DNA of 64,000 nucleotides from Leptolyngbyaceae cyanobacterium. Its GTDB lineage: Bacteria > Cyanobacteriota > Cyanobacteriia > Phormidesmidales > Phormidesmidaceae. Location of the stretch: NCBI GenBank assembly GCA_965263355.1, contig CBDHHL010000032.1:2048001-2112000 (forward strand), in the 5' to 3' direction. The notes under the pieces were generated by a model, which had not been told where the DNA came from, ran no database searches, and saw only the letters and a program-made list of their open reading frames with translations. How positions within the stretch are numbered: position 1 is the first letter of the stretch; the number at the start of each line of letters is the position of its first letter. The position numbers were made by a program, and so were the translations under genes. Positions 27,505 through 36,944 of the stretch are shown piece by piece.

Positions 27505-27933
27505 CTAATGGGTTTGCTCAATTAGCTCTCGGATCACTTTAAGTTCATCCAGTACCTGACGCAGTAGTTGATGAGTCAAAGTTTCTGTGGGTTGACTAAT
27601 TTCGATAGTAACTTGCTTAATTCCTAAGACATCCTGGGCAAAGCGGGCTACTTCGTTGGGATGAAACATCAATGGATCTTCCTTATGTTGTCTTGACTCA
27701 GGATTAAGACGCTTGTGGTCAAAGGTGGGATTCAGAATTAATGTGTCGGTATTGGCATAGCGATACACTGAGGCGCGGGAACGATTAAGGACTTTTTGCA
27801 CCGCTTCAACACTCATCAAGTTCTGCGAGCCGGTTTCGGCAGGTTCGAGGGTATCAATGGCTGTGGTGATACCGTCTAATGCATTGACTAAATCGGACAT
27901 AGATATCCCAATCTGTGTTTTATGGTTAGACAC
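27505..27933 (-). CDS. Cyanobacterial HTH + coiled-coil protein (MerR/excisionase-like HTH; family often labelled resolvase)
   Basis: LMSVEAVQKVLNRSRASVYRYAN HTH; C-terminal LLRQVLDELKVIRELIE helix; start GTG 27933 or ATG 27900. Confidence 0.8.
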   Translation of the reverse strand: MSNHKTQIGISMSDLVNALDGITTAIDTLEPAETGSQNLMSVEAVQKVLNRSRASVYRYANTDTLILNPTFDHKRLNPESRQHKEDPLMFHPNEVARFAQDVLGIKQVTIEISQPTETLTHQLLRQVLDELKVIRELIEQTH

Positions 27934-28563
27934 ACCGTACTCATATTGAGCCTTATGTCAATACTTTGATGTCTATTGTTAAGACAGTAACGAGTTCTGA
28001 CTGTGGGTCAGGACGGCTAATTACAGTATTGACTGTCTTGAATTAAGACCAATAAAAATCAAAGTGAGTCTAGACTTAATCAATTGTATCTTAAATCAAG
28101 ACAAACAATTGCGATCGCATTTTCTGCGAGTTGTCAGCTCGCACTGATGTCACCTTCGATCTAAAAAAACATTGTCTAAATTTGGGTACCAACTTAAAAC
28201 GGGAAGTTTTCCTAAGGATAGACGTCAGAAGTCAGTAGCCAGAAGCCATATCCCTTCTAAATGCTGCATTGAGTCATCGTCAAATTGATCGGACAACTAA
28301 ATTCAATATTGATTCATCTTAGCTTAAGACTACTTTGCCTTGAAATGAGTCCCAACAAGAAAGTCATAGTCTTATTTTAAGATTTTTAAGTTTAATTGCG
28401 TCCAGTCTAATTGGGCTATCGGATAGTTTATTGGCTGTATTGATCGGAACGACGCTTCAAGTAACTGCGCCATCTCCGTCGACAGTAACGTGTTGAATCA
28501 AAATAAGACAAAGCTATATTGCACTAAGACTTAAAGTAAGACTTAGCTATCTTATTTTAAGTC
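27917..28563. repeat. Array 1 of 15-bp RTCTY-N5-RAGAY palindromes in four-site modules
   Basis: Best sites: 27971 GTCTAttgttAAGAC, 28035 GTCTTgaattAAGAC, 28088 ATCTTaaatcAAGAC, 28316 ATCTTagcttAAGAC, 28369 GTCTTattttAAGAT, 28528 GACTTaaagtAAGAC, 28549 ATCTTattttAAGTC. Confidence 0.8.
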
Positions 28564-28836
28564 AACTAAGATGCGTGCAATTGTCAGCCTATCTGTTGGG
28601 GGTAGGGCTTAACGGATGGCACCTTTTCAAGGAGTGTCACTATGTACTACAAATTATTTGTGCCGGGTGCGATCGCAATTAGGTTGCCGTGTGTTGGTGG
28701 CATGGGTGTATTGTGGGGATGCGATCGCGCTTTGGAAGGATGTTTTTGGCTTAAAAGTAGCTTGAAAATTTAGTCCATTTTTAGTCCAGTCTGATTTCTT
28801 GATCCTCAAAAATCAATAAAATAAAGGCTTTTAGAC

Positions 28837-28871
28837 CTTTGACTAGTTGCGTATACCGCAACTAGTCAAAG
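28837..28871. other. 15-bp perfect inverted repeat at the left edge of the accessory island
   Basis: CTTTGACTAGTTGCG-TATAC-CGCAACTAGTCAAAG, overlapping the stop of the TPR fragment. Confidence 0.6.
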
Positions 28872-30876
28872 ATGTTTTCTGAGGATTTCCAGGTTGCCCT
28901 GCACGACCTTGGTTGATGGATGATCTGCCCCCAAAATCCGCTCGAAAATCTTCAGCGCTTCAAGATAGAGCGGTTCGGCTGCCTCATAACGGCCTTGATT
29001 GTCGTAGAGTAACGCCAAGTTATTGAGGCTTAATGCGACATCGGGATGCTTGTCGCCCAACAGCTCTTTGCTCATCTCAAGCGCTTCAAGATAGAGCGGT
29101 TCGGCTGCCTCATAACGGCCTTGATTGTCGTAACGCCAAGTTATTGAGGCTTGACATCGGGATGCTTGTCGCCCAACAGCTCTTTGCGCATCTCAAGCGG
29201 TTGCCGCCAAGTTATTGAGGCTTAATGCGCTTCAAGATAGAGCGGTTCGGCTGCCTCATAACGGCCTTGATTGGCGTAAGTGCCGCCAAGTTATTGAGGC
29301 TTAATGCGACATCGGGATGCTTGTCGCCCAACAGCTCTTTGCGCATCTCAAGCGCTTCAAGATAGAGCGGTTCGGCTGCCTCGTAGCGCCCTTGAGCATT
29401 TAAATAAAAACCGGCTTGATTACAAATTAATCCCAGCGCTTCAGTTCGCACATTCTCTTGCTCAGCATAGTTCCGCACTTGTAACCAATGAGGCAATAGC
29501 CCAGCACAGTAAACCCAATACTTAAATTCACTTCCAGGATACGCCGCATTTAGCCCCTCAACTCCAAAGGTCACCCAACCAGTCCGCACCGCCTCATCCA
29601 TCTCATCCCGCACCACCGACTGCACCAACCGATGCACCCCATAGCGCTGGTTCTCCCCATCCCACCGCACCAGCGAGTACTGGCTCAATGGTTCCAATAA
29701 TTCCGCCATCGTCACCACCGCCAGGTCATACTCCTCCTGCCCCAGCAGTTCTGCTAGAGTCTTCCCCAAGTGCTTGGCCCCAGCAATCACCATCCAATAG
29801 GGAATATCATCCGGCGCAAAAAAAGCACTTAGTTGCAATAGCTCCGACGAAGCCGGACTTTTTTCTGCCACCGCCTCAACGTTCAGCTTCCAGGTCTTCA
29901 GCACCGACGATGGATACTTGCCCGTCTTGGCCTTAGCCTTTTCTAACTGCGTCAGCCCCAACCGATCATAGAGCTTCAAATAACTCTCAAACCCAATATG
30001 CTGCTGCTTGATATACGCCCCAGCCTGCTCCAACGCCAAAGGTAATCCATCCAATTTTTCATTCAACGCCGCTGCACTGGCTTCCTCTTTCCGCCCCGTC
30101 CGCTGCAATAGTAGTGCTACCGCCTCATCTTCGTGCAACACATCCAACGCAATCGGCTGCTTAATCCCCACCGAGTCAAACACCGCTGCCCGCGATGTCA
30201 GCAATACCGTTCCTTTAGGATTATTCGGCAACCAATCCACTAGCAGTTCTGGCTCATCCGCATTGTCAAACACCAGCAGCCAGCCATCTTGGTTCGTCAA
30301 CCACGCCCGCACCGCCGGAATTTTCTCCTCTTCAGTCCCCTTTGCTTCCGGTAACACCAACTGAGCCGCCAGGTTAGCAAAATCCGTCGCCAGGTTAGTC
30401 CCCGTATCCGCCTTTACCCAAAACACATAGCTATAAAACGTTTCGTCATAGAAATACCGATAGGCATACTCCACTGCCGTCTGGGTTTTACCAATGCCCC
30501 CCAATCCGCTGATCGCCTGCACCTGACTAATCGCCACCGCCTTCATTTGCGTTAGCTGCCGGTGCAATTTTTTCAGGATCTCAGTTCGTCCCGTAAAGTA
30601 AATATTCCGCTGGTAAGGCACCCCAAAACATACCGGTTCCCCTGGCTTTGCTGCCGTCATCCCTTGGTAAATCTCAACCTTGGCATTTTCTCCAATTGAG
30701 CCAATACCAATATTTTTATCTCCTGTAAATTGTTGCTTTACCTGAGTTGTTTCTGGTGTGGCAACATTATTTTTTTGCACAACAGCATCCCGTTTCCCTC
30801 GACCCCACAACCGAGAAACCCACGCCGCAATGCGCTGTATCAACCGCCTGAACCAGCTCCGCCGTCGCCTCACCAC
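28866..30876 (-). pseudogene. NB-ARC + TPR (NLR-like) gene with a disrupted TPR array (ORFs 29212..30876 and 28866..29075)
   Basis: FTGR, GLGGIGKT, WLLVFDNA, GLPLALEQA; 42-aa TPRs GRYEAAEPLYLEALEMRKELLGDKHPDVALSLNNLA. The near-identical 126-nt units at ~28950-29400 carry several small deletions that shift frame. Confidence 0.8.
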
Positions 30877-31302
30877 CTAACCCTGGGTAATGTTGACCGA
30901 CCCACTGGAGCTACCAATCACAATATTCCTATCCCCAACCACCGACTGCGCCACACTTACCGCCTGACCAACAGTCTCAGCATCCTTATCCAACAGCCCC
31001 TGCAATTCCTGTGCCAACTCCGGATTTGCCACCAGCACCTTCTTCAACTGAGACAACCAAATCTCCTGCGCCTCATCATCCTCACCATTTTCCGCCAACG
31101 CTTCCGCCGCCCCCTTCGCCAACGGCTTTTCCGTCACCTTCGGAGCCAGCTTACCCCACGCCTGCTTCGCCGTTTCCCAAGTCCCTTCCCCCAGCTTTTT
31201 ACCCAGCGCTTTACCAGTTTCCTCTGCAACAGGTTTACCCAACTTCAACAAATGAGGCAAAAACGGAGACAAAAACGAAGCCAAAAGAGCCGCCAGTTCC
31301 AT
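30877..31302 (-). CDS. Bell-like helical effector with a C-terminal putative amyloid motif
   Basis: MELAALLASFLSPFLPHLLKLG amphipathic start, helical body, C-terminal QSVVGDRNIVIGSSSGSVNITQG; its stop abuts the NLR start. Confidence 0.72.
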   Translation of the reverse strand: MELAALLASFLSPFLPHLLKLGKPVAEETGKALGKKLGEGTWETAKQAWGKLAPKVTEKPLAKGAAEALAENGEDDEAQEIWLSQLKKVLVANPELAQELQGLLDKDAETVGQAVSVAQSVVGDRNIVIGSSSGSVNITQG

Positions 31303-31389
31303 GGTCACTATTTTCCAAACTACTGCCCACAGTTTAGCCACAAATTCCCAAAATCAGGCCCCATCAATATAAAAATCACCCCAACGGGT

Positions 31390-31720
31390 ACCACAAACCC
31401 CCCTCGTAGGGTGGGTAAACACCCCACCACCCCCCTAATCATCTCGCCGAAGAATTATAACCTTACCCACCGTTCACCCAAATTCGAATATGACCAAATC
31501 CCTATGAGCCAAATCCCCCCTCGTAGGGTGGGTAAACACCCCACCAACCCCTTTACCATCTCGCCAGACTATAACCTTACCCACCGTTCACCCAAATTCG
31601 AATATGACCAAATCCCTATGAGCCCCCCCCCTCGTAGGGTGGGTAAACACCCCACCACCCCCCTGATCATTTCGCCGAAGAACTATAACCTTACCCACCG
31701 TTCACCCAAATTCGAATATG
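31390..31720. repeat. Three tandem ~111-117-bp REP-like units (type A)
   Basis: GTAGGGTGGGTAA...TTACCCACC units with GTAG at 31406, 31523 and 31634. Confidence 0.9.
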
Positions 31721-31763
31721 CTCCAAAATGTTACAAGCCGAGTCTATAACCAGCTTAAAAGCA

Positions 31764-32159
31764 TCAACCAACCAGCCAATCCTCCATATGCAGATGAAGA
31801 ATATTCTCAAAATGACGAATATTATTAGTCACAACAATATCCCCACGAGAACGAGCCACAGCAGCAATCAGCGCATCCACTTCACCAGTCGGTTTACCTA
31901 TACGTCTCAATTCTCCTTGGAGCTTACCAAATTCTTCAGCTGCCAGCTGATCAAACGGAACAACCAACAAAAGGCTTAGTAATTGCTTCAGCACAGCCAG
32001 ATTTTTAGACACTTTCTGAGAGCAATACACCCCTTTGTACAGTTCTGCTAAAACCATGGTGGGAATGTAGCATTCGACTCCCTTTTCCTCAAACTGAGCA
32101 ACAGCATTAGGATGCTCCTGAAGTAACGCAATACAAATATTAGTGTCCAGCAGATACAT
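31764..32159 (-). CDS. vapC: PIN-domain toxin
   Basis: YLLDTNICI, LAELYKG, DALIAAVA, VTNNIRHF. Confidence 0.92.
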   Translation of the reverse strand: MYLLDTNICIALLQEHPNAVAQFEEKGVECYIPTMVLAELYKGVYCSQKVSKNLAVLKQLLSLLLVVPFDQLAAEEFGKLQGELRRIGKPTGEVDALIAAVARSRGDIVVTNNIRHFENILHLHMEDWLVG

Positions 32160-32179
32160 ACAAATAGTAAGACCCCAGC

Positions 32180-32479
32180 CTATTCATCAAAAGCAGCCAA
32201 AGACCTACCTTGATAAGCATGGCGTTCTTTTGCTATCTCACTAAAAATATCCGTAATTTCTGAATCATCTTTCCACCCACCAAGAGCTGCCCGAATCTTA
32301 GAAACTCGCTGATCTTGGCTCAAACCGCTCAACGGATGAGGAGCAATCGTGACATTAGCCCTCACCGCATCAACCAGAACGATAACCTCAACGGTACTAC
32401 CCACAGGCAACTCAGTTGACCGTAACTCAACAATGCCCCCCGGCTGAACAATAGCCGTTTGGCGAATGCCATTGATCAT
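32180..32479 (-). CDS. Putative antitoxin of the VapC
   Basis: Directly upstream of vapC, GAGGAA RBS, beta-rich start VQPGGIVEL...GSTVEVIVLV. Confidence 0.72.
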   Translation of the reverse strand: MINGIRQTAIVQPGGIVELRSTELPVGSTVEVIVLVDAVRANVTIAPHPLSGLSQDQRVSKIRAALGGWKDDSEITDIFSEIAKERHAYQGRSLAAFDE

Positions 32480-32538
32480 AGTGATTCCTCCTGACTAAAG
32501 ATATCAACCGAATCAAACTCTAACTACAATAATTTTAA

Positions 32539-32888
32539 GTACCACAAATCCCCCCTCGTAGGGTGGGTAAACACCCCACCAACCCCTTTACCATCTCGCC
32601 AGACTATAACCTTACCCACCGTTCACCCAAATTCGAATATGACCAAATCCCTATGAGCCAAATCCCCCCTCGTAGGGTGGGTAAACACCCCACCAACCCC
32701 TTTACCATCTCGCCAGACTATAACCTTACCCACCGTTCACCCAAATTCGAATATGACCAAATCCCTATGAGCCAAATCCCCCCTCGTAGGGTGGGTAACT
32801 CCCCCCAAACCATTGTTGGTATTGACCAAAACCCTCATTTACCCACCGTTTCCATAACGGTAAACCAGTTAAACCCTGCGATCGCACC
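32539..32888. repeat. Three tandem REP-like units (A, A, B), 114-bp period
   Basis: GTAG at 32558, 32672 and 32786; the third unit has a different loop and ends in a HIP1 site. Confidence 0.9.
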
Positions 32889-32906
32889 ATTCCCATAAAG
32901 TCCAGT

Positions 32907-33335
32907 TCAGAACCCTGGCGGATGCTCATCCGAGTCATACAGAATCCTACGAAGATTAACCAATCCAACCCGATTCAGCCGAAGCTTTTCAACCGTAGCC
33001 CGCCCAACAGAGGTTAAACCCAATACTGCACTACAATCCTCGTTCCAAGCAAAATGCTTAATCCAGGTCTGCTGACGCGGATGATAAAGCGTCACCATCT
33101 TTTGCGTAACAGGATCTCTTACCTCGACGTAGTTGTACTTGCGGTTATTGCAACCCTGACAAGCAAACGCCAAATTAGATAACTCACTGGAGCCCCCTTT
33201 AGAAATTGGGATGATATGTTCCACAGAAAAAGAATCTGGAGAATAACGCTCCTGAGCGCGACAATACTCACAACATCGCCGGGCTCGCTCAGCAACAGTT
33301 ATACGAGTAGTAGAAGAAATCTTTGGTCTAGCCAT
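32907..33335 (-). CDS. HNH endonuclease
   Basis: CEYC, VEHIIPISKGG, NLAFACQGCN, YHPR...W..HF. Confidence 0.9.
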   Translation of the reverse strand: MARPKISSTTRITVAERARRCCEYCRAQERYSPDSFSVEHIIPISKGGSSELSNLAFACQGCNNRKYNYVEVRDPVTQKMVTLYHPRQQTWIKHFAWNEDCSAVLGLTSVGRATVEKLRLNRVGLVNLRRILYDSDEHPPGF

Positions 33336-33756
33336 AAACCAAAGGCTTTAGATCTAGCTCAACCATCAAACTATCAAGCGTGATTTGCCGTAGGTTTGCC
33401 AAGTCTGCAACTGCTTGCATACGAGCAACATTTGCTATTTCTAGCCGATCAGAAAAGGTAGTCAGCTCTTCTTGCTCATCCAAGGTCAACGTTTCAGCCT
33501 GACGCTTTACTATAAGTGCGTGATACTGCTCATAATCAATATCTGGCAAGCTCTGATTAATAACCTGCAACAGGTCAGCTTCCTCTTTAGAAAGTCGTGT
33601 ACCCGTAGACATTTGGGAAGTTTCAGGTCGCAGAGTCTGATGCAGTAACTGCAAAACATAGGTATCTGGAGCTAACCCTGCTTTTTTTGCTGCTTGCCTG
33701 AGCTGCTGCTCAAGTTCTGGCGTCATCTCAATAGTGAGCGTCATCAAGGACTCCAT
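33328..33756 (-). CDS. Partner of the HNH nuclease, putative antitoxin/regulator
   Basis: Overlaps the HNH start by 8 nt; RHH-like N-terminus LTIEMTPELEQQLRQAAKKAG. Confidence 0.7.
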   Translation of the reverse strand: MESLMTLTIEMTPELEQQLRQAAKKAGLAPDTYVLQLLHQTLRPETSQMSTGTRLSKEEADLLQVINQSLPDIDYEQYHALIVKRQAETLTLDEQEELTTFSDRLEIANVARMQAVADLANLRQITLDSLMVELDLKPLVYG

Positions 33757-33807
33757 GAATAAATTGAAACATCGGTATTATTGTAGATATCCCACATTAC
33801 CAGAGCA

Positions 33808-33910
33808 CGTAGGGTGGGTAACTCCCCCCAAACCATTGTTGGTATTGACCAAAACCCTCATTTATCCACCGTTTCCATAACGGTAAACCAGTTAAACCCT
33901 GCGATCGCAC
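33808..33910. repeat. Single REP-like unit (type B)
   Basis: Near-identical to 32785-32888. Confidence 0.88.
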
Positions 33911-34789
33911 CCCATCCCAAACCAACCAACCAAAAATCCCCAAATAAAAAATTTAATCGCCATCTACGTAAAAAAACGTACCCTCTCACAAACCATTAAA
34001 ACCCCTTCAAATCCTTCATAAACCAATTACAAAACTGTCCAAATATAAGGATAAAGCTTACAAAAATTTGTCTAAAATAAAACCAACGGCACACCGAGCA
34101 ACTTGGCTAAGACAAATTGCTTGAGGGAGTCGCTGCTCCCTGAGATGAACCGAATTTAAAGAAACCGATACGCACAGAAGCACCCAGACTACCTCAGTGT
34201 AATCACCTGTGTTTTTATCAATGCGTAGGTCTCTAATCAGCCTATTGCTAATCAGCAGGATGGATCAATCTAAATCTCGCGGCAGTTGCCAAGACATTTA
34301 GACTAAGCACTCCAGAGATTAGCAAAACGGCACAACAACAATCCGAATCATCTCTCGAACCAGCAGGTCCGGCAGGTCTTATCGCCCTGACATAACCTCC
34401 CTCAGACAATTTAGGCATTTTCTCGACAAGGCTATATCGGTTGAAAGCCCTCCCTTTTTGTGGAACTATCCACACTATCCCCAATCGGCATACTGGGGTT
34501 TCCCAATGCTGGAGGAAAAGGAGTAAACTCCCATGCTTGGAGGTTTGGGCTTCAACAGACGTGGTGCTGCCTGCCTACCATTCACCCACACAAGTCCATG
34601 TCCCCTACCCTACTTTTTGCACTCCCCGTTCTATTCCGCTGTTCCGCCTTCTACTACTGCTTACTCAAAGGCATGGCTCCCACCCTGCCCACCCTATGGC
34701 CTCTTAGGGTGAAGCCACATAGTGTGGTTGTTGGATAGCAAACATATATATGAATACCCTGTTCTACACCAGCCACTATAAAAACAATT

Positions 34790-34824
34790 GCCCTCCTCGC
34801 CCAAAAGCCAGGAGGGCTAACTTT
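34790..34824 (+). terminator. Probable intrinsic terminator
   Basis: GCCCTCCT...AGGAGGGC stem followed by TAACTTTT. Confidence 0.45.
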
Positions 34825-34973
34825 TAGCCCTTAGGCAGAGACATCAATTGAACCATCCTGTAGGGGCACTCCCTTATGGATGCCCTGCGATACCGAGCTA
34901 TATCAGTCAAGATTTTGTAGTCGTTTGCGAGCAGTTGTTCATCCGTAGGATGTTTCGGAACCCATAGAGCTGG

Positions 34974-35778
34974 GTGTCTTCTATCATGCCTCTACTACAA
35001 AACTACAAACGTAAGCAAGTCCAACGGGTTGATCTACCTAAACTGGTTGATCTCCTGGCCGCCTGTGAGGCTGTTGATCATCTAGAAACCAATCGTTCCC
35101 TGGCAGAACTGCAGCGCGGGTTTGACAATCGCCCCCCCAATACCATCAGACATTATTACCTTTGGGAAACCCCCGATGGTCAGACCATTGCCTATGCCAT
35201 CTATGGTATTCGCGAGGTACCCACAGACCCAGATGCCTACCCTAGCGTTAAGGTTCATCCCGACTATCGCGAAGGTAACCTCGAAGCCGAAATTCTCAGC
35301 TGGTGTGAGCAAGAGATTCATAAACTGCGCCCCGATGCTACCCTGTGGGTCAGTGCCCGTCTGGAATTTTCACCCCACCACCCTCGAAAATCGTCGTCAC
35401 CAGGTCCTACGTCCTACGTACCAGGCAGACCTAGACTGGATTGCCATTGCCCCTGACGGCACCTTTGCCGCCTTTTGTGATGCCCACATTTTCCACGAAC
35501 GCAATACCCGCACCGGTCGCAAAGAAGGTTGGATCACCGGCTTAGGCACCCGTCGTGGGTTTCGTCGCCAGGGCCTAGGGCGGGCCATGTTGTTGTTAGG
35601 CCTGCAACAACTCCAACAAGCAGGCATGGAAACCGCCCTACTCGGCGTTGATGCCGAAAATTCTAATCAAGCCCAAACTCTCTATAAATCCGTAGGTTTT
35701 GCCCAAACTCTCTATAAATCCGTAGGTTTTGAAACAGTAGAAACCTCAGTTTCTTATACCAAAAGGGTGTCAACGTAA
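34974..35778 (+). pseudogene. Double-GNAT acetyltransferase pseudogene
   Basis: N-terminal GNAT half (VHPDYREGNLEAEILSW) and C-terminal half (LGTRRGFRRQGLGRAML...LYKSVGF) lie in different frames, joined near 35360; exact 30-bp tandem duplication at 35671-35730. Confidence 0.78.
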
Positions 35779-35906
35779 GCCAGAAAATCTTGGCTAGTTC
35801 GATTTATAAAGATTTTAACCCATTCCTCCATCGATTCTTAATAATTAACGTTCGCTGGCCAGGAACTCCTCTGGTTAGATAGAGGAGTCCTTTCCGTTGG
35901 CCCACC

Positions 35907-36206
35907 ATGACTCCCAACCAAGCAGCCGTTACTCATGCCATCGCCGTTCTCCTATCCACCACCCCAGAAACTCGCCTGGGCCAGTTGCTCAAAGTATGTC
36001 TGGCCGCCAAAGTAGATGGCGACGTCGATGCCAAAGCCCAGGAGCTTTTCCAAGATACTGACAACCTGGCCCACTGGGTCCAAGCAGTCATCGGTGATGA
36101 TGGCCAATACACCCCTGACGAATGGCAAGCCCTGGGGGAAATGGATCTCCTAGAGAATGTTGAAAAATTTGTTGAGGGACTACTGGCCGAAGTCGAAGCA
36201 CTGTAG
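35907..36206 (+). CDS. Hypothetical acidic protein
   Basis: 99-aa ORF with plausible helical composition. Confidence 0.65.
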   Translation: MTPNQAAVTHAIAVLLSTTPETRLGQLLKVCLAAKVDGDVDAKAQELFQDTDNLAHWVQAVIGDDGQYTPDEWQALGEMDLLENVEKFVEGLLAEVEAL

Positions 36207-36748: not shown

Positions 36749-36944
36749 GTCTTAAAACAAGATTATATTTTCTCAAAAATAGACTCACTGTAACCTTTAT
36801 AGTCTCAACTTGAGATTAAGATTGTCTGCTTCTATGCACGCAGATTGCAATCGGCTAGAAAGCGCCCTAAGGAGTGTCTCAACAAAAGATAAAATAGCTT
36901 CACTTTGAGACTCAATAAAAGACAAAATTGTCTTGCCTTAAGAC
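36749..36944. repeat. Array 2 of 15-bp RTCTY-N5-RAGAY palindromes (two modules)
   Basis: 36749 GTCTTaaaacAAGAT, 36770, 36802 GTCTCaacttGAGAT; 36876 GTCTCaacaaAAGAT, 36897, 36909 GACTCaataaAAGAC, 36930 GTCTTgccttAAGAC. Confidence 0.8.

Follow-up and report, generated by a model that had tools for sequence, protein, structure and literature searches.

Lambda-type attachment (att) sites are worked by an arm-binding integrase together with an excisionase, and they carry a 7-bp overlap between inverted core sites. Xer systems, which include the single-recombinase variants XerS and XerH, rely on a conserved single-copy tyrosine recombinase and on one short intergenic inverted-repeat core (dif) per chromosome, located at the terminus skew switch. 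At the plasmid sites cer and psi, accessory sequences of about 200 bp lie in fixed phase next to the recombination core, and the proteins involved, PepA and ArgR or ArcA, are host proteins with other jobs. Bacillus RacA, a MerR-like winged-helix protein with a C-terminal helix, uses clustered palindromes (ram sites) that are origin-proximal and GC-rich and act in sporulation. E. coli MatP and Caulobacter ZapT show terminus-restricted DNA binding. According to the accessible text of PMC7188993, MatP sites (matS) extend over 800 kb, and ZapT, a MerR-type protein with a winged helix and a C-terminal helix, lacks a consensus motif and binds mostly within ORFs.

For cyanobacteria, a dif site was predicted in none of the five genomes treated in PMC3025954 and none was predicted in a 2019 genome paper (PMC6416890), as far as the accessible parts of these sources extend. 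In the portions available, 10.1101/542381 and PMC8138268 put forward a 'Cyan' group of recombinases, separate and without an arm, for Oscillatoriophycideae, and regard enzymes with an arm domain as mostly phage or ICE integrases. The locus described here bears on how cyanobacterial chromosomes, often present in many copies, are completed and separated; it supplies a defined site of 29 bp along with candidates for the enzyme and for the accessory protein. A literature search, mostly of freely available papers, found no account of the protein, its motif, or the site.

The locus lies in a 64,000-nt stretch of DNA from a Leptolyngbyaceae cyanobacterium, hereafter the window. Its features are as follows (strand is given where one applies).

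27505..27900, minus strand: single-copy gene for a 131-aa winged-helix (HTH) protein, predicted MerR/excisionase fold plus C-terminal helix
27917..27985: module 1, four 15-bp palindromes spaced 21-12-21
27934..27961, minus strand: promoter-like element predicted from sequence (TTGACA, 16 nt, TAnnnT) inside module 1, kept in 13 of 14 close orthologues
28035..28102: module 2, spaced 21-12-20
28316..28383: module 3, spaced 21-12-20
28495..28563: module 4, spaced 21-12-21
28771..28788, minus strand: direct repeat of TGGACTA (two copies, period 11 bp) at a distance of 51 bp from the core; predicted to be an arm-type site for the recombinase
28840..28868: 29-bp core with two inverted arms of 11 bp that enclose an asymmetric 7-bp spacer; predicted site of crossover
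28866..36206: stretch of variable genes that separates the core from the far modules and differs among relatives
36749..36816: module 5, in the gap between DUF1499 and DUF3598 genes
36876..36944: module 6, the second far module

In overall plan the locus resembles Xer/dif, with a single intergenic core near the terminus skew switch (exceptions are G022, G196, and G248) and a conserved single-copy tyrosine recombinase. In contrast to dif, which is 28 bp long in the accessible text of PMC3025954 and in Xer systems is arranged 11-6-11 for a XerC/XerD pair, the core is 29 bp long, arranged 11-7-11, and has unrelated arms; the locus also adds an arm-type repeat and accessory arrays. Lambda-type att sites share with it the 7-bp overlap between inverted core sites, a direct-repeat arm site, predicted for this locus, about five helical turns away, and a candidate partner with the excisionase fold. 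Unlike att, the locus is chromosomal and single copy, with a one-sided arm, a variable spacer, genes that are not adjacent, and long arrays at variable distance. As at cer and psi, an accessory nucleoprotein next to the core could bias recombination toward resolution without FtsK, although here the protein is a dedicated one and modules lie up to 15 kb away. We judge it probable that the arrays, direct repeat, and core together form a dif-equivalent for chromosome-dimer resolution that uses a single arm-domain tyrosine recombinase and, as predicted accessory factor, the winged-helix protein. The locus is likely to be the missing cyanobacterial site for cutting fused chromosome copies apart. 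The motif, its spacing, the single cluster per genome, the geometry of core and arm, the terminus position, the gene co-occurrence, and the fold class were all computed directly.

An initial annotation of this DNA had listed about 16 palindromes of the form RTCTY-N5-RAGAY, and all 16 were recovered where it had placed them. Four are perfect (starting at 28035, 28088, 28316, and 28369), and four each have one, two, or three mismatches; the near-perfect class, which it had given as seven sites, holds eight with at most one mismatch. Between 27901 and 28600, these 4 perfect sites and 8 sites with at most one mismatch compare with means of 0.027 and 0.42 in 2000 dinucleotide shuffles, in which the maxima were 1 and 3. 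The motif thus stands far above background frequency, the level that the annotation itself had named as grounds for giving up its reading. A matrix derived from orthologue upstream regions, with the window excluded, recovers the four modules at the spacings listed above and yields zero modules in 20 block shuffles of the window, which confirms the fixed-spacing, four-site organization. The overlap of the middle pair of sites also stands, although a single 9-bp palindrome centred on the module dyad is an equally good reading. The two modules at 36749 and 36876 had been overlooked, as had the core and direct repeat at 28771–28868, which lie 280 bp farther along. The palindrome arrays are thus part of a larger locus with a direct repeat and an inverted-repeat core.

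The stretch at 28866..36206 contains an interrupted NB-ARC/TPR gene, tandem repeats, and small genes of PIN type and HNH type; these last two labels, unlike NB-ARC/TPR, are our own reading of the sequences. Between 28866 and 30876 the NB-ARC/TPR gene is broken inside its TPR repeats, with its end at the core. C-rich tandem repeats at about 30.7–34 kb of the window distort the local skew.

The likely start codon of the HTH gene is ATG 27900 rather than GTG 27933, since homologues begin at 27900. Module 1 had been thought to cover the start of the gene; with the likely start at 27900 it covers the promoter instead. Its overlap with the conserved promoter-like element makes the autoregulation proposed earlier likely, and we predict from sequence that the gene is controlled through this module. 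The gene family has 1093 homologues, which are cyanobacterial and are labelled 'resolvase' by their sources. We rejected a serine resolvase identity because the catalytic resolvase domain is absent from Pfam and NCBIfam searches of the window protein (Pfam gave weak HTH matches alone, NCBIfam none).

A structure model of the HTH protein reaches pLDDT >90 over residues 31–90, and its top fold matches are nearly all of MerR/Xis/BldC type (Z 5.0–5.7, rmsd 2.1–3.3, 51–62 residues). Excisionases, BldC, MerR regulators, and RacA match about equally, all with Z<6, so that only the fold class is fixed: on this model, the protein has a winged-helix fold of the MerR/excisionase class. The initial description as a MerR-like HTH plus coiled coil accords with the modelled winged helix and C-terminal helix. 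An earlier, poor model (pLDDT 59.5) gave zero matches in its fold search, Foldseek with the better model returned nothing at E≤0.001, and a sequence search of solved structures found no match.

The HTH family is fused in nature to a domain resembling the N-terminus of the recombinase described below (35% identity over 86 aa, pairwise E 1e-10), in two distant proteins. In six distant relatives (P0175, P0176, P0178, P0183, P0186, and P0187), the winged helix is joined to a GntR domain; two of these six also carry the recombinase-type N-terminal domain. These fusions likely lie on mobile DNA. Two genomes, G050 and G054 (L070 and L074), each have at the HTH gene start one palindrome with a 4-bp rather than a 5-bp centre, a possible minimal operator.

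Genome-wide tests were run on genomes of relatives of the window's organism. The expectation that the same motif and spacing would recur upstream of orthologues held, with a site of at most one mismatch within 800 bp upstream at 33 of the 34 loci compared (L034 was left out as incomplete). Upstream of orthologues there are 34 perfect sites in 29 kb, against 11 in 223 kb elsewhere, and the dominant spacings are 12, 20–21, 32–33, and 53–54. Full modules are present at 18 of the 34 loci, with 49 modules upstream and none downstream. A strict half-module pattern is at background outside the closest clade.

The suggested positional clustering in genomes was also found: there is one cluster per genome, independent of neighbouring genes. 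For example, 11 of the 20 perfect sites of G003 lie within 14 kb. A module model built on 63 modules was run on 32 genomes, with 150 candidates scored per genome; 8 of the 32 had supplied training modules. Strong matches of each genome fall in one region, and 9 of the 32 genomes have no match. The three clusters of G002 are explained by scaffold gaps, which split one gene between two of them. Matches in four genomes without the HTH gene proved to be one coding stretch of smc and were dismissed as chance. Where the array is absent at the HTH gene, the cluster stands elsewhere in the genome. In G054, which is outside the training set, all four model matches fall at 477–483 kb, 1 Mb from the HTH gene, and amid them at 479,373 is a degenerate core.

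Were the protein a conventional transcription factor, regulating itself and a small, clustered regulon, module 1 over its conserved promoter-like element would be expected, as would the preference of modules for tandem or divergent gaps (43 of the 46 classified modules). We consider this very improbable, since the modules are intergenic but their flanking genes change from genome to genome. Three of the 46 modules lie in convergent gaps, as do the arrays of G114 and G196, and clusters remain with the core even where the gene is 1 Mb away.

The 29-bp core has a perfect 15-bp stem in the window and was listed there as terminator-like, so that it might have no relation to the arrays and act as an RNA hairpin or intrinsic terminator. 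The arm sequence itself is conserved, and the arm pairs are mismatched in 49 of 319 cases, 20 of which are not wobble pairs on either strand. A run of five T within 14 nt is absent in all 19 cases inspected. The 7-bp spacer differs in 25 of 29 cores. Varying spacers and non-wobble arm mismatches are expected of a double-stranded protein site rather than of an RNA hairpin. The compared cores also hold a direct repeat with an 11-bp period at a fixed 50–53 bp on one side; in most cores of filamentous genomes, its offsets are 52 and 63 or within 1–2 bp of these. The hairpin explanation is accordingly close to negligible.

Core counterparts were found in or near module clusters in eleven genomes (G001, G002, G003, G004, G022, G072, G130, G236, G256, G262, and G263), and degenerate cores lie beside arrays in G054, G102, G220, G259, and G248. 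The distance from core to nearest module ranges from about 0.2 to 6.6 kb, in contrast to cer/psi and lambda att, where the accessory sequences are fixed; this speaks against the dif-equivalent reading. Large genomes contain weaker secondary copies of the core. The core was not located in G258, G260, G261, or G264, and neither array nor core was found in G043, which has both the HTH gene and the recombinase. Among 14 genomes lacking the HTH gene, the core-plus-arm pattern is absent from 12, and two-mismatch matches in the other two were read as chance. A looser form of the pattern in 251 genomes gave 8 true sites amid chance-level matches. In a metagenome scan that selected loci on the arm repeat and part of the core alone (40 loci with duplicates, many <4 kb), modules occur at 22 of 35 distinct loci and at 0 of 35 after shuffling; the HTH gene is present on 7 of the 35, always on the arm side.

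The core is also found in small genomes whose picocyanobacterial type is inferred from their size and gene content, where looser arrays flank it downstream of a gene with RHH and DnaJ domains. This 340-aa gene adjoins the terminus locus at L149:18898-19908 (G226) and in L166-L178; all 13 of the small genomes examined for it have it there, and it was not detected in six others. A 9-bp motif near three arrays was dropped, since in G114 it falls inside the end of a coding region. At L189, L190, and L193, a short repeat lies ∼50 bp from the core on the non-arm side; it is common to G003, G001, and G002 and absent in the window.

The position of the core on closed chromosomes was expressed as distance from dnaN in fractions of the circle. 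Values are 0.484 (G022), 0.492 (G054), 0.476 (G226), 0.465 (G196), 0.494 (G114), and 0.25 (G248), so that the core is about opposite dnaN in five of six chromosomes with exact lengths (0.465–0.494). Seven more small genomes, using rounded sizes, give about 0.47–0.50. On the left of the core, strand-balanced fourfold GC skew exceeds that on the right in 11 of 11 regions (z>4 in 6, <1 in 4), and the same test at control genes gave |z|<2 in six of six. Of 12 regions of ≥44 kb, 10 have their detrended cumulative-skew peak ≤5 kb from the core, compared with none of six controls. Seven peaks are within 1 kb of the core (118, 285, 420, 471, 607, 785, and 893 bp), and the detrended peak of the window lies at 29325. 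Six metagenome loci have flanks of >4 kb on both sides, and five of them show the same skew fall. In G022 and G196 there is no skew peak at the core; in G022, dnaA and dnaN are far apart. The G248 site shows a local skew switch only, and 20 samples of its genome-wide skew gave no clear V. At this site (L246, G248 C1 about 1,322,900), a tRNA-like gene, a typical integration target, is ∼70 bp away.

These data show that the array cluster and core mark the replication terminus in most genomes tested. In the accessible text of PMC7198777, oriC of Synechococcus elongatus is near dnaN and V-shaped skew occurs mainly in clades C–G, a range that the identified holders of the HTH gene (Leptolyngbyaceae, Nodosilinea, and Prochlorothrix) appear to fit; the available part of PMC3480399 describes the S. 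elongatus terminus as not clearly defined. A cluster opposite dnaN, at a plus-to-minus skew switch, is the signature of a terminus and not of an origin. The centromere-like role and RacA analogy advanced at first were therefore abandoned, as the cluster is at the terminus and is tied to a core, an arm repeat, and a tyrosine recombinase. Palindromes gathered in one region and a fold match to the RacA DNA-binding domain (Z 4.4) would suit a centromere near the origin, such as RacA/ram or ParB/parS; no sequence relation to RacA was found and the sites are not origin-proximal, and we regard such a centromere as extremely unlikely.

Alternatively, the HTH protein and arrays might mainly organize the terminus, as a MatP- or ZapT-like division-ring tether or a non-polar fork barrier, with the core a neighbour that recombines independently. 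The variable distances of the modules from the core, up to 15 kb in each direction, the sharp skew switch, and the ZapT-like combination of winged helix and C-terminal helix are consistent with this possibility, as is G050, which keeps the HTH gene without a recombinase orthologue. Predicted terminus-restricted binding is likewise shared with MatP and ZapT. In contrast to the 800-kb spread of MatP sites and the motif-less binding of ZapT, the modules here are intergenic four-site units within 0.3–35 kb, tied to a recombination core. The skew peak also tracks the core and not the modules: in G262 the peak is 420 bp from the core, whereas the modules are 6.6–12.9 kb off. Together with the pairing of the HTH gene and recombinase in the same genomes, and the fusion of both families, these facts make a mainly organizing role unlikely.

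That pairing was measured in a sample of 251 genomes, of which about half are roughly 2-Mb genomes that may belong to non-photosynthetic classes; the counts include kin and are not phylogenetically independent. A full-length HTH gene is present in 24 genomes and a recombinase orthologue (E<1e-150; next best 3e-99) in 23, all of them among the 24. The remaining genome is G050, in which no array was found. The recombinase gene adjoins hemH, far from the core. In the three small genomes G226, G158, and G114, it is the sole PF00589 match and is 12–16 kb from the HTH gene. All five recombinases examined match PF00589 (best E 1.7e-8) and have invariant catalytic R, K, R, H, and Y residues, in the order R-K-(H/Y)xxR-H-Y. 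Unlike Xer enzymes, they carry an extra N-terminal domain and score below the XerC, XerD, and XerS cut-offs; a match of this domain to Arm-DNA-bind_2 (PF12167) is weak and limited to one of five members (E 0.008). The nearest solved relative is the archaeal XerC-like protein 4a8e (E 1e-5). A further apparent difference from Xer/dif concerns FtsK: no FtsK domain (PF01580) exceeded the cut-off in four of five genomes tested, and none is listed for the S. elongatus control. The fifth, G001, has two strong matches, and an FtsK is named in Halomicronema in the accessible text of PMC6416890.

Core-plus-arm sites that lack modules were found next to an integrase gene of G001 (L198) and at 10 distinct viral loci, of which 8 have an identical spacer and none has modules. 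These look-alikes indicate that the anatomy is att-like and keep alive the idea that integrative elements with integrases of an arm-domain family use the locus as an attachment site or junction, with the arrays as excisionase sites and the terminus position a result of an insertion hot spot. Variable gene content on the non-arm side of the core and several excisionases among the closest folds agree with it. We nevertheless rate this idea as quite improbable. The site is not flanked by mobile-element genes for an integrase and an excisionase; it is single copy and retained in 1.6-Mb genomes with one tyrosine recombinase, and the HTH gene was found in none of 72,556 plasmid or 50,697 phage records. 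An att target has to match the element that integrates into it, whereas the spacer here varies freely. The chromosomal site differs from the mobile look-alikes in being single copy, in its free spacer, in its modules, and in its position at the terminus.

For the dif-equivalent that we favor, we infer every binding and catalytic step. The HTH protein would bind the 15-bp palindromes as dimers and fill a module cooperatively, over seven half-site centres with a mean pitch of 11 bp; on module 1 it would also repress its own promoter. The recombinase would place its catalytic part on the core arms and its N-terminal domain on the direct repeat, as lambda-type integrases do. Once replication has ended, bridges between protein-bound arrays on sister copies would bring the two cores of a dimer together and allow exchange over the 7-bp spacer with no need for FtsK. 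The bridging step is the least certain, and the arrays may be more of a terminus tether than a direct recombination cofactor. We propose that the spacer can vary freely between genomes because a match to its own sister copy suffices.

A broader scenario is plausible but tentative, and we would not yet rely on it. In a cyanobacterial branch that runs from the smallest marine genomes to filamentous Leptolyngbyaceae, XerCD/dif/FtsK may have been replaced by a domesticated phage integration-excision module. It would comprise an integrase that binds arm sites, a terminus core resembling att, and a protein with the excisionase fold, whose phased arrays pair sister termini, impose resolution-only recombination, and possibly fix the point where forks meet; some integrase-less cyanophages would carry mimics of the site. 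On the dif-equivalent reading itself, the locus would mark the terminus in genomes whose skew is weak and would be a case of a phage-style recombination module turned to housekeeping. The site and the candidate enzyme and accessory protein can be tested in model strains, and they are present in the most abundant type of marine phototroph.

Several other sequences share parts of this locus. A dispersed repeat of G001 (e.g., C5:364724-364785; at least 16 copies) has one perfect 15-bp palindrome of this motif, with a weak module-model score, and is probably the end of an insertion sequence, which could attract the HTH protein. In the 43-kb viral contig G265, a core with arm-like repeats on both sides (L204:1501-1529) lies among phage structural genes; no integrase was found on this contig, and the phage possibly uses the host recombinase. 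Cyanophage-like contigs L308-L318 carry the arm repeat, one good core arm, and a common spacer, and in L308 a short integrase-like ORF follows the core-plus-arm site.
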